Positions 18,450-21,356 of a DNA stretch of 64,000 nt are shown here, piece after piece; the stretch's first letter is position 1; every line of letters begins with the position of its first letter. The position numbers were made by a program, and so were the translations under genes. Source of the DNA: Azonexus sp. (lineage in GTDB: Bacteria; Pseudomonadota; Gammaproteobacteria; Burkholderiales; Rhodocyclaceae); assembly GCA_041917165.1 (NCBI GenBank), contig JAYRYB010000002.1, forward strand, positions 337,327 to 401,326. Reading direction: 5' to 3'. The notes below the pieces were generated by a model that worked only from the letters and a program-made list of their open reading frames with translations, did not search any database and was not told the DNA's origin.

Positions 18450-18467
18450 GCAGCCTTCGTGCCCAGA

Positions 18468-18541
18468 GCGGGCGTCGTATAATGGTAATACCTCAGCTTC
18501 CCAAGCTGATGCCGAGGGTTCGATTCCCTTCGCCCGCTCCA
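18468..18541 (+). tRNA. tRNA-Gly (CCC)
   Basis: Acceptor stem GCGGGCG/CGCCCGC, anticodon arm TCAGC-TTCCCAA-GCTGA, T-loop GGTTCGATTCC, encoded CCA; 74 nt. Confidence 0.97.
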
Positions 18542-18571
18542 CCTGATTTCATTCAGGTCATTGATCTGAAA

Positions 18572-18642
18572 TGTGCCGTTAAGCATAATGTGTCCGCCCG
18601 GACAGCTTATGCTTTATTTTCCGATAGGACACATTTTGCTTT
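18572..18642. repeat. tRNA-proximal transposon end with three TnsB-type sites
   Basis: AAGCATAATGTGTCC 18581-18595 (reverse), GGACAGCTTATGCTTT 18600-18615, GGACACATTTTGCTTT 18627-18642. Confidence 0.85.
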
Positions 18643-18699
18643 ATCGGAAATTTGTGGCTGACAAGACAAGGTTTTTTCAAGGCGCCAATCGCTAGGCGT

Positions 18700-18723
18700 A
18701 AAAAAACCGGCCACATGGCCGGT
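18700..18723 (-). terminator. Terminator downstream of the tniQ remnant
   Basis: Minus strand ACCGGCCA-TG-TGGCCGGT hairpin running into a T tract. Confidence 0.7.
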
Positions 18724-18749
18724 CCTTCCTGTTCCCGGAATTCCTCCGG

Positions 18750-19664
18750 CTACTTTTCTTCTTCTGATTCGGAATCTGGTCTCAACAGGTGGCTTTGTAC
18801 GTCCTTGAGATTTAGGAGGAGATTGCTCAAGGGGGCGAGAATTGGAGCTGGCACCCGGGCGATGACCTCACGTAGGGTGACAGACTTTCCCTCTGCCCAA
18901 ATATCAATGCAAGCCTGCTCGAGATGCGGCCATGCATTGACGACATGTTCATCCTGACGCCGGCGTAGATATTCCTTCCAGCGCTCGCCAAGTTGCCGAG
19001 CGAGCGTATTCGCGCGCAGATAAAGCAGTCTGGCGTCGATATTTAATCGCCTCCCCGCTTCACGCACGGTGATTGGCGTCGGCAACAAAAGAAATGCCCG
19101 AAGTTGGTTTTCAATTTCTGCCCAGTTTCGCTCACGCTTTACCGTGCGAGTGCGTGGTTTGGGCTGGGGCAGGTTCAGAACAAGCTGAGGCTCTACTTGC
19201 GGACACACCCACTGCGATAAATCTCCGCTCAAAAGCTGTGTCAGACTTGCTCCGCTGTGAGCCGCAATCTTTAGGCTGGCCTTCAGGGTCGGTGTGCCAT
19301 CACCCTTCAACCAGTTGTGGACCGTGCTTTTCGCTAAACCGATACGTCGAGCAAAGAGAGCACTTTGCCCGTTGTCCATTTCCTCGATGATTTGCGAGAT
19401 TGCATTGATGAGGTTGTCGCGCATTGGTGTGCTCGCCAAAGTTTGCTGAGCGAAAACCAATTCACCGATTTGCCGTGCAGCCCATCGTGCGGCAGGGTCG
19501 ATTGAGGCGTTACTTGCTATTGCTCCCGCTTTCCCAAGGAACTCTCCACAATGAGTACACCAGCCGGGAACTACATATGCAGATGTATGGCGAATATTGT
19601 CTTTTCCGCAATGAGGGCAATGTCTCTCCAGCGAGCAAGCGTGTCGTGAACAAACGGAATGTAT
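18750..19664 (-). pseudogene. tniQ: 5'-truncated TniQ/TnsD-family target-selection protein
   Basis: Manual in-frame extension beyond the listed ORF gives VCSRHACSLERHCPHCG..PGWCTHCGEFLG (TniQ zinc-finger region), then an XRE-like HTH (FARRIGLAKSTVHNW); no start codon, in-frame stop at 19665-19667. Confidence 0.85.
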
Positions 19665-19975
19665 TCAGCGTATCTAATCATCCATCAGCATTGCCGATAC
19701 GACTGGATGAGGCTGATATACGTGAGACTTATCCTTGGGAGTACAAGAACCTGACCCAACGTCTCCGCCTGAGGTATGAAAACTTCAAGGAAAACATTCG
19801 CTACCACCAAATCCGTAAGGAGCTTGAGGGCGATAGTCGTTTCTGTAGGGAGCGCCTACTTGACCCCCTCAAGCCAGATGGTACGAAGAAAAAATTCTAC
19901 AACCCCAACATATTGCGTGAATTTGACCCTCACTACGTCAGGAGCAAAAAACCTGTGAATCCAGAAACGGCATAG
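19660..19975 (+). pseudogene. 3' fragment of a cargo gene resembling the C-terminus of DUF3644-type proteins
   Basis: YPWEY..LT..LR.RY.NFKEN..YH.IRK.LE...LDP..P...KKKFYNPNIL.EFD.HY recalled from that family; 5' part lost at the deletion junction. Confidence 0.5.
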
Positions 19976-19985
19976 GGCCTGAGGG

Positions 19986-20022
19986 TAAAAGCAAGAAGCC
20001 CATGTCTCTGAACATGGGCTTC
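19986..20022. terminator. Hairpin/terminator between convergent cargo genes
   Basis: GAAGCCCATGT-CTCTGA-ACATGGGCTTC with an A-rich flank (T tract on the minus strand). Confidence 0.55.
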
Positions 20023-20278
20023 GTAAATCTTGAACCTTGGCGCTGACGGCCAAGGTGAACGGTTCATTACCGTTGGGGTGCTACTTGGTCATTTTGTCGA
20101 ACTGCGGCGGATTTTCAGTCATGCTGCCTCCAATCGCGTTGTTCCTGAAGAGCCTGACCAACTGCCCGTCAGGCTTCAATTCCAGATTACTCCTCCAGAC
20201 AAAAAAGTCCACTAGCGGTACGGAGAAACGGCCCGCCAATTGGCGAGCCGTAGTGACACCTGTTTGCGGCGAACTTGG

Positions 20279-20953
20279 TTAGTCGTTGCTGGAGAATCCG
20301 AGCAGTTGCAGCACCGACAGGAAGAGGTTCAGCACATTCAGGTACATGCTGACCGCAGCCATCACATAGTTGGTTTCTTCACCACGCACCAGACGGCTGG
20401 TGTCGTACAGAATGAAGCCGGAGAACAGGAGCGCGGCAACGGCCGATACGCCAGCCTGCATGGCCGGGACGAACATCGCAGCAATGCTGGCCAGGATGAC
20501 GACAATCAAGCCGGCGAACAGGAACCCGCCCATGCGGGAGAAATCCTTCCCGGTTTTATGGACGTAAGCCGTCAGCGCCAAGGTAACTGCGGTGGTTATC
20601 ACGGCTGCCGTGAGCACCGTGCTGCTGCCACCAGGCATGTTGATGTAGTGGGTCAGCGTCGGGCCGATACCCATACCGCTGAGGGCGGTAAAGGTGAGCA
20701 TGGCCGGCACGGCTGCCGCAGTGTTCCGTTTCTTGTGCAGATAGAACAGCGGCACCAGGCCCAGCAGGGTAAATACGATACCGGCCAGCGGACCAAAACC
20801 CGCCAGCATGCTGATACCTGCACCGACGCCGGTAACAGCCGTTGAAAGGGCGAGCAGTTGGTAGGTATTGCGAATGACACGGTTGGTGTCGGGCGCCGCA
20901 AACGTGCCATATTCGGTTCTGCTCAGGTCGATAACACGTGCTTCAGTGCGCAT
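20279..20953 (-). CDS. yccA: Bax inhibitor-1/YccA family membrane protein (transposon cargo)
   Basis: NRVIRNTY.LL, GPTL..Y, KDFSRMGGFL, LFSGFILYDTS, TNYVMAAVSMYL..LNLF; RBS GGAGGAG. Confidence 0.92.
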   Translation of the reverse strand: MRTEARVIDLSRTEYGTFAAPDTNRVIRNTYQLLALSTAVTGVGAGISMLAGFGPLAGIVFTLLGLVPLFYLHKKRNTAAAVPAMLTFTALSGMGIGPTLTHYINMPGGSSTVLTAAVITTAVTLALTAYVHKTGKDFSRMGGFLFAGLIVVILASIAAMFVPAMQAGVSAVAALLFSGFILYDTSRLVRGEETNYVMAAVSMYLNVLNLFLSVLQLLGFSSND

Positions 20954-21185
20954 GGTGGATAACTCCTCCAGTGGTTGGTGACGTCACTGTAAGTCGTAGC
21001 TCGTTACCAAAAAACCAACCCACTGCTGAGCTTATATTCGAAAAAACAGAATCAATGTAACTTGTTGGTGAGTTTTTGCAGGATGCTGACCCCAATGGGC
21101 ACCTTCATCCATTGGCCTGGGTGGCGAAGGTGATTTTTGTGGGAAACAGGTCGAAATCTCCCTGTTTTCTAAGCCAATATTTTTT

Positions 21186-21318
21186 GGACACCTTATGCTT
21201 TATTTCCTACCGATAGGACAGGTTATGCTTGATTGGTAGAGGGGCCAGACCAGCATCCAGACTGAGCTTGAGGACAGTTTGTGCTTTAATGCTTGGACCT
21301 TTTATTCGTAACGCCACA
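21186..21318. repeat. tRNA-distal transposon end with four TnsB-type sites
   Basis: GGACACCTTATGCTTT 21186, GGACAGGTTATGCTTG 21216, GGACAGTTTGTGCTTT 21272, GGACCTTTTATTCGTA 21295, then terminal ACGCCACA. Confidence 0.85.
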
Positions 21319-21324
21319 TGAAAT

Positions 21325-21356
21325 GAAAAAAGCCAACCCAAGCGGTTGGCTTTTTT
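21325..21356 (+). terminator. Bidirectional terminator, probably the original tRNA-Gly terminator displaced by the insertion
   Basis: AAAAAAGCCAACC-CAAGC-GGTTGGCTTTTTT immediately after the right target duplication. Confidence 0.85.

Follow-up and report, generated by a model that had tools for sequence, protein, structure and literature searches.

A probable internally deleted Tn7-like transposon behind the tRNA-Gly(CCC) gene of Azonexus sp. and its tRNA-associated relatives

Tn7 of Escherichia coli inserts at glmS by means of TnsABC and TnsD, encodes TnsA and TnsB as separate proteins, possesses a TnsE pathway, and carries its transposase-binding sites in a single orientation. For the TnsAB clade, in which both proteins are fused and which has been characterised in cyanobacteria, the literature describes insertion 29 ± 1 nt behind a tRNA gene in the case of McCAST, with the left end adjoining the target and with left-end sites in both orientations (PMC9881144), and insertion 30-33 nt behind a tRNA gene in the case of CyCAST, a type I-D system (PMC10293859). 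According to a further study, TnsD makes contacts where the tRNA gene ends and its C-terminal helix-turn-helix (HTH) motif is essential, the target tRNAs named are those for Val, Ala, and Leu, and deleted array-targeting elements that retain tnsD and both ends, often in several identical copies, have been proposed to move in trans (PMC11837452). Here, we describe an element in a 64,000-nt stretch of DNA from Azonexus sp. (Rhodocyclaceae; assembly GCA_041917165.1, contig JAYRYB010000002.1, positions 337,327 to 401,326), which as a whole is called the window below and whose host genome (G000) is available as an assembly of 27 contigs with 87% completeness. The element, 2,747 bp in size (18572-21318), is probably a Tn7-like transposon that has lost its middle and kept both ends together with the 5-bp target-site duplication; TnsAB, TnsC, and TnsD as encoded by intact relatives likely placed its ancestor 30 nt behind the tRNA-Gly(CCC) gene, and the present copy is likely stranded.

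Ends, target site, and gene content of the element

The tRNA-Gly(CCC) gene (18468-18541, forward strand; ARAGORN; Rfam RF00005 with 62.5 bits) is intact, and the element begins with TGT at 18572, 30 nt behind it, and finishes with ACA at 21318, its two ends being identical at 18 of 24 positions. It is flanked by a perfect duplication of TGAAA (18567-18571 and 21319-21323, forward strand), the left copy of which lies 26 nt past the last A of CCA. These boundaries had been proposed in a first-pass annotation made from the sequence alone, and all of them hold. The same is true of its statement that removal of the element sets the tRNA gene beside a terminator: a terminator-like hairpin of the host with a perfect 13-bp stem and a T run is located at 21326-21356 (forward strand), and the empty sites that had been called for as a check were found in three genomes (G003, G051, and G013), where a single TGAAA precedes the same terminator. 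The G+C content is about 0.65 in the flanks and 0.46-0.61 within the element, and copies of a repeat family are present at both of its ends.

When pairs of TGT and ACA 0.5-30 kb apart and flanked by a 5-bp duplication were counted as a check on chance, 17 pairs genome-wide had at least 16/24 identical positions and two, the window element and one other, had at least 18/24. Taken alone, end match and duplication are only moderately strong evidence and not far beyond chance. Beyond these two features, it is the arrays of predicted TnsAB-binding sites that decide, and because of them the element is regarded as real. A 16-bp site matrix was trained on 26 distinct sites, all from the ends of relatives, whose own scores (14.3-26.9) are high by construction. 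In a scan of the genome with this matrix, six sites of the window element took the first six places among 100 hits, and clusters of three sites were found nowhere in the genome except at the two ends of the element. At the target-proximal left end (18572-18642, forward strand), TGT is accompanied by three predicted sites, one directed inward (18580-18595) and two inverted (18600-18615 and 18627-18642), with scores of 26.3, 25.2, and 24.6. The distal right end (21186-21318, reverse strand) comprises four predicted sites in a single orientation (21186-21201, 21216-21231, 21272-21287, and 21295-21310; scores 26.0, 21.4, 19.7, and 7.7) and ACA; the outermost of them, the seventh of the element, scores below the training range. 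TGT and ACA ends with site arrays (three sites on the left and four, one of them weak, on the right) and a 5-bp duplication that is single at empty sites are thus present as in Tn7-like elements.

Inside the element, a 5'-truncated tnsD is located at 18750-19659 (reverse strand), whose open frame corresponds to residues 144-445 of a 445-residue TnsD and is 91.5% identical, with no stop, to residues 144-438 of TnsD from an intact element in genome G127. The remnant keeps the zinc-finger half, the XRE-type HTH motif, and the C-terminal helices, while the TniQ core (PF06527, residues 22-153 of intact TnsD) is lost. The first-pass annotation had noted the absence of tnsA, tnsB, and tnsC, which is correct for the element, and had overlooked this tnsD; some tns sequence is present after all. 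The tnsD match stops at 19659 and a match to a DUF3644 gene begins at 19658, which places the internal deletion junction at 19658-19659 with two shared nucleotides (AA); the start of tnsD, tnsC, tnsAB, and most of the cargo were removed there. The DUF3644 gene, a candidate defence gene (PDC-S19 of PADLOC), is left as a 3' stub (19658-19975, forward strand) of the last 105 codons (residues 232-336 of 336; 92% identity; PADLOC PDLC04954, E 1e-33). The sole whole gene is yccA (20279-20953, reverse strand), which encodes a 224-residue membrane protein of the Bax inhibitor-1 family (PF01027, E 3e-48), recurs as cargo adjoining the right end, and has a ratio of nonsynonymous to synonymous substitution rates (dN/dS) of 0.03-0.08 against four relatives, indicating purifying selection. 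For the tnsD remnant, dN/dS is 0.10-0.19 against intact copies compared with 0.11-0.15 between intact pairs, a closeness that fits a recent deletion; retention of the truncated TnsD as a guard of the site, which was also considered, finds no support in these values. Whereas a Tn7-like element encodes TnsB, the AAA+ ATPase TnsC, and TniQ/TnsD, the window copy keeps only residues 144-445 of TnsD and must be classed as a derivative rather than as autonomous.

That the short form is an assembly artefact joining two parts of a longer element is very improbable. The assembly is incomplete with its 27 contigs, and in three of four runs no listed piece spans the junction, but a contig of 1,663 nt from run X1 covers 18466-20123 including the junction with 0 differences, and two shared nucleotides are too few for the collapse of a repeat. 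Contigs of runs X2 and X3 are identical to each half and diverge exactly at the junction, the pattern expected of an undeleted parent with nearly the same sequence.

Some further features of the interior may be mentioned. A terminator-like hairpin downstream of yccA (19995-20022, reverse strand) matches only by consensus. The region 19988-20278 downstream of yccA, without an Rfam match or a convincing open reading frame (ORF), is kept along with yccA in many relatives at 70-94% DNA identity. A 17-nt inverted repeat (20034-20050 and 20568-20584) is complete in the window alone among five loci and is likely due to chance; the Rfam scan gave nothing besides the tRNA above threshold, and promoter-like sites are at chance level (3 versus 2.2). 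A second copy of yccA with 88% DNA identity is located in G000 on contig C11 (50147-53303), where an island behind tRNA-Phe contains it along with a portion of the same downstream region, an ORF judged by eye to be integrase-like, and an Mrr-like gene; no transposon ends were found at this island.

Empty sites, filled sites, and intact relatives

The tRNA region was matched in 112 of 129 genomes of the genus, and the 30 best-scoring loci were examined, a set which favours filled sites. The tRNA gene is followed by the terminator, i.e. the site is empty, in 17 of them, by a Tn7-like end in five (the window, three close relatives, and one with a different end type), and directly by other foreign sequence in six; two loci gave no match to the tRNA pattern. 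TnsD matches were obtained in 16 of the 129 genomes, in seven of which, including G000, the identity is 85-100%. All seven elements with such a close TnsD belong to tRNA-Gly(CCC): five lie directly behind it, one follows an 18-nt duplicate of the 3' end of this tRNA, and one is displaced by an island. The distance from CCA to TGT is 30 nt in the window and 28, 28, 29, and 29 nt in the other direct cases, 31 nt behind the 18-nt copy, and the downstream sequence is unrelated across these offsets of 28-31 nt. Perfect duplications are found in five of the seven (TGAAA, ATCTG, TTGAG, CAATT, and TCTGA). In G067, where the ends lie on two contigs, the right flank of the host is nearly that of the window and the duplication (TCTGA) is shifted by 2 nt, which indicates an independent insertion at the same site.

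The occurrence of other islands behind the same tRNA gene in 6 of 30 loci, as well as the position of the second yccA copy beside an integrase-like ORF behind tRNA-Phe, could suggest an origin from an integrase-type island at the tRNA 3' end, of which the element would be a remnant with the Tn7-like parts as passengers. We consider this hardly credible, since a copy of the tRNA 3' end is missing from the far boundary, no integrase ORF lies within the element, its boundaries are formed by TGT/ACA, the 5-bp duplication, and the site arrays, and the insertion points shift by a few nucleotides among genomes in the manner of a transposase. Intact TnsABCD elements with the same ends largely refute it.

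Such full-length relatives, in which homologous ends flank intact tnsAB, tnsC, and tnsD, had been predicted from the sequence and were found in G127 and G067. The element of G127 is complete with 28,904 bp, and the first 80 nt of its left end are identical to those of the window element at 77 positions. From the left end, it contains tnsD-tnsC-tnsAB (reading toward the tRNA gene), a DUF6471 gene, a type I restriction-modification system, AbiD, a primase-helicase, Wadjet, WYL, yccA, and the right end. The families detected in both G127 and G067, in which the tns genes are likewise intact, are PF08722, PF00665, PF09299, PF05621, and PF06527. TnsAB of the parent type has 901 residues with PF08722 at 74-166 and an rve domain at 501-607, and TnsD has 445 residues with PF06527 and HTH_3, of which the window keeps the C-terminal two thirds. 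The best PDB match of TnsAB is 9bw1_M (898 residues; E 2e-139), aligned over 4-848 and thus nearly the whole length, and those of TnsC and TnsD are 8fcu_Q (E 2e-42) and 8v32_J (E 2e-30, over 8-375); we take the three entries (9BW1, 8FCU, and 8V32) to be PmcCAST structures. Among the 16 long ORFs in or beside the G127 element, Pfam detected no Cas family, and PF06527 matched once; in PADLOC, one primase-helicase ORF matched PrimPol and had weak scores with models of Cas3 helicases. Cascade genes and a second small TniQ, which together with a CRISPR array characterise CRISPR-associated transposons (CASTs), were thus not found with the long ORFs of G127 scanned, and one TniQ-family gene without a Cas family makes the element resemble the homing pathway of a CAST rather than a CAST.

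Other deletion derivatives are present in G131 (19.1 kb), G089 (7.1 kb), and G005 (5.0 kb), and the breakpoints in G000, G005, G089, and G131 are unlike each other. The G089 element has the cargo order of the window and a whole DUF3644 gene. In G131 (L068:4743-4753), the left end of the 19-kb element is cut to 11 bp, and the TTGAG duplication is still perfect. The G005 copy, which lies behind the 18-nt tRNA fragment, was considered as proof of a minimal target and set aside, because an island integrating later explains it equally well. The genes beside this 5-kb derivative (L022:14506-19980) resemble a stress-tolerance island; from their translations we take them to be LysR, DegP-, HtpX-, PsiE-, thioredoxin-, and FtsH-like.

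The tRNA-Gly(CCC) gene is also used by other elements. In G106 (L140:3773), another Tn7-like end, identical at 44 of 80 positions, lies 28 nt behind it, and a second lineage is thus using this site. A group II intron in tRNA-Gly(CCC) was detected at seven of seven loci scanned (L149, L141, L142, L144, L145, L146, and L147, from genomes G131, G076, G126, G090, G045, G142, and G008) by Rfam RF02012 and RF00029 and a reverse transcriptase of about 555 residues, shortened in G131; none is present in the window. In G131, where the same tRNA gene bears both the intron and an element of the Gly lineage, the intron is inserted after nt 39. Just 5' of the reverse transcriptase gene lies another complete tRNA-Gly(CCC) gene, and Rfam identified a tRNA in all seven. 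A literature search on such an intron in tRNA-Gly(CCC) yielded nothing relevant.

Origin and mobility of the window copy

By analogy with the cyanobacterial relatives, TnsD would bind the DNA of the 3' half of the tRNA gene and then load the AAA+ ATPase TnsC, TnsC would recruit the fused TnsAB bound at the end arrays, and TnsAB would excise the element and insert it left end first; the insertion would leave the tRNA gene whole and push the terminator to the far side. A full-length parent with the DUF3644 gene and yccA would have inserted first, and a deletion of at least ~5 kb at the 2-nt microhomology would then have taken the TniQ core of tnsD along with tnsAB and tnsC. Any further movement of the remnant would require TnsAB, TnsC, and TnsD from another element.

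Helper tns genes, a search for which had been proposed in the first-pass annotation, were not found in the 87%-complete G000: tblastn with the TnsB part and with whole TnsAB and TnsC of two lineages revealed none, and PF06527, PF09299, and PF08722 gave 0 matches in G000, whereas G127 as positive control matched each time. Three candidates were rejected: a TnsC match proved to be the frameshifted tail of the G005 query hitting tnsD, the PF05621 candidate is a single weak match in a 792-residue frame of a family that matches 13 of 14 control genomes, and a weak TniQ-like match (C1:809645-809935, E 7e-4) is unsupported by PF06527. As no helper was found and the element is single-copy in G000, it is likely stranded.

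As an alternative, in keeping with the mobilisation in trans suggested earlier, the element could be an active non-autonomous mini-transposon that is moved as a 2.7-kb unit by the helpers of another element and carries yccA as payload, which is unlikely. Both ends and the perfect duplication are retained, the left end is nearly identical to that of an intact element, yccA is under purifying selection, and for deleted cyanobacterial elements found in identical copies movement in trans has been proposed (PMC11837452). This is opposed by the single copy and the lack of a TnsAB, TnsC, or TniQ helper in G000, by the weak outermost right-end site, and by the fact that none of 40 relatives matches across the junction. 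For a non-autonomous element resembling miniature inverted-repeat transposable elements, more than one copy or a helper would be expected within the genome; neither was found in the 87%-complete assembly.

Several points weigh against the reading as a stranded remnant of a parent inserted here. Along its outer 80 nt, the right end matches none of the seven relatives found in 128 genomes, although its site spacing is kept, and for this reason the immediate parent of the window element has not been seen. The duplications of two of the seven Gly-lineage elements (G089 and G004) and of one of four other elements compared (G114) are imperfect. Runs X2 and X3 are apparently a single data set deposited twice, and X1 may stem from the source sample itself. 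The element could already have been in its deleted form on arrival, the order of insertion and deletion being our inference, and a helper may be unassembled in a genome that is 87% complete. With these points considered, a stranded remnant is still the probable explanation and is preferred over an active mini-element.

The wider branch and its comparison with known systems

Records with TnsD proteins 94-100% identical are titled Dechloromonas, Azonexus, Rhodocyclaceae, and uncultured betaproteobacterium, in line with the earlier proposal of a tRNA-Gly-targeting Tn7 lineage in Rhodocyclales, and the named hosts of related elements include Methyloversatilis, Oxalicibacterium, Ralstonia, and Caballeronia. 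Sister elements, whose left ends are identical to that of G127 at 60-79 of 80 positions, lie 27-29 nt behind genes for tRNA-Val(CAC) (four), tRNA-Ser(TGA) (three), tRNA-Lys(TTT) (two, one of which was not typed by ARAGORN), a CAT tRNA (one), and ssrA (two). In more distant elements, the tRNAs concerned are Ser, Ala, and CAT ones at an offset of 25-26 nt; G017c, also among them, has no adjoining tRNA. A tRNA or ssrA T-loop with CCA 25-30 nt upstream of TGT was found at 22 of 25 left ends and at none of the other three, so that the elements show, as Tn7-like ones do, a constant distance and a single orientation relative to a conserved gene. By analogy, the branch likely aims at tRNA genes via one DNA-binding protein. 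TnsD of the Val lineage is 45% identical to that of the Gly lineage in the TniQ part and 23% in the C-terminal part, and TnsD of the Ser(TGA) lineage 64-69% and 64-65%, respectively; this fits a choice of target by the C-terminal part without proving it. In a quick TnsD tree, calculated without cyanobacterial rows and unsure in its deeper forks, the window falls into the Gly lineage (six rows, support 100) next to Ser(TGA) (eight rows, support 100). Homologues comprise 215 proteins at E ≤ 1e-30 among 7,999 scored; one other match was obtained in 400 genomes class-wide and eight in 400 order-wide, and relatives in plasmid records are limited to three megaplasmid ones with 41-48% identity.

Two related elements are arranged in tandem in G017 (L028:6538 to L026:15675), 7 nt apart and without an adjoining tRNA, within one TTCCC duplication. 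On a viral contig (L165), tnsC and tnsD (41%) are accompanied by a left end with 93% identity, which lies 28 nt past an ssrA-like 3' end; as proof of a minimal target this locus was rejected, because later integration of an island explains it equally well.

A broader claim is put forward tentatively and must be considered doubtful: the window would hold a relic of an undescribed betaproteobacterial three-gene branch of Tn7-like elements with nearly the same ends, which reaches at least six RNA-gene targets via changes of TnsD, lacks Cas, TnsE, and a second TniQ, spreads from cell to cell by landing in the edge of islands or prophages that use the same tRNA ends, and provides natural, interchangeable tools for site-specific integration. 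If true, each member of the branch could move the window mini-element to another tRNA gene. The window copy itself is an ordinary decay product, and its value lies in the lineage exposed. The sister elements with their similar left ends at six RNA genes represent a ready series for studying how TnsD changes its target and how a one-selector Tn7-like element enters new cells. Defence genes (type I restriction-modification, AbiD, Wadjet, and PDC-S19) are part of the cargo of the parents, whose hosts are wastewater and freshwater bacteria, and the three tns genes of these parents might find use as a tool for safe-site integration in Rhodocyclales and Burkholderiales.

The kind of element is already known, and the branch with its new targets was not found in the literature searched, a search that lay outside subscription papers and bioRxiv supplements; large surveys may hold such loci unnamed. 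The supplements of PMC10293859 contain none of six terms for hosts or targets of the branch, and PMC3384475 concerns a different Tn7-like element of Cupriavidus. In the accessible part of PMC8649781, Table S1A lists the end motif GGACACYTTATGCTTT, which matches the sites of the window, for Tn7-like elements of Pseudoalteromonas and Vibrio cidicii; these differ by a tnsB of ~1.8-1.9 kb compared with fusions of 2.7 kb, and the Rhodocyclales rows among those listed there carry other motifs or none and belong to other types.

With Tn7, the elements share TGT/ACA, arrays of TnsB sites, the 5-bp duplication, and a fixed offset at a conserved gene in one orientation; Tn7 is distinguished from the branch by separate TnsA and TnsB, its TnsE pathway, insertion at glmS, and binding sites that all face the same way. 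The first-pass assignment to the Tn7 family is supported, while affiliation with the TnsAB-fusion clade, like the tnsD remnant, had escaped it. The deleted array-targeting elements of cyanobacteria, as described in PMC11837452, likewise lost tnsAB and tnsC by internal deletion and retained their ends, but possess an intact tnsD, target CRISPR repeats, and often occur in several identical copies, whereas the window contains a single copy, in whose tnsD the TniQ core is missing. With the cyanobacterial tRNA-targeting clade (PmcCAST of type I-B2, McCAST, and CyCAST), the branch has in common the fused TnsAB (present in the parents and absent from the window copy), TnsC, a large TnsD with TniQ core and C-terminal HTH motif, the 5-bp duplication, an offset of ~29 nt from the tRNA gene, and a left end at the target with sites in both orientations (one inward and two inverted in the window), a kinship that rests on best-hit scores. 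It differs in the betaproteobacterial hosts, in a TnsD only ~25-30% identical to the cyanobacterial TniQ-family matches, in the one TnsD without Cas or a second TniQ in the complete G127 element (16 long ORFs), which sets it apart from CASTs, in the lack of a transposase in the window copy, and in its targets: Gly(CCC), Val(CAC), Ser(TGA), Lys(TTT), and CAT tRNAs and ssrA compared with the Val, Ala, and Leu tRNAs named in PMC11837452. TnsD-guided tRNA targeting with a fused TnsAB, characterised in cyanobacteria, thus appears here as a broad betaproteobacterial branch.

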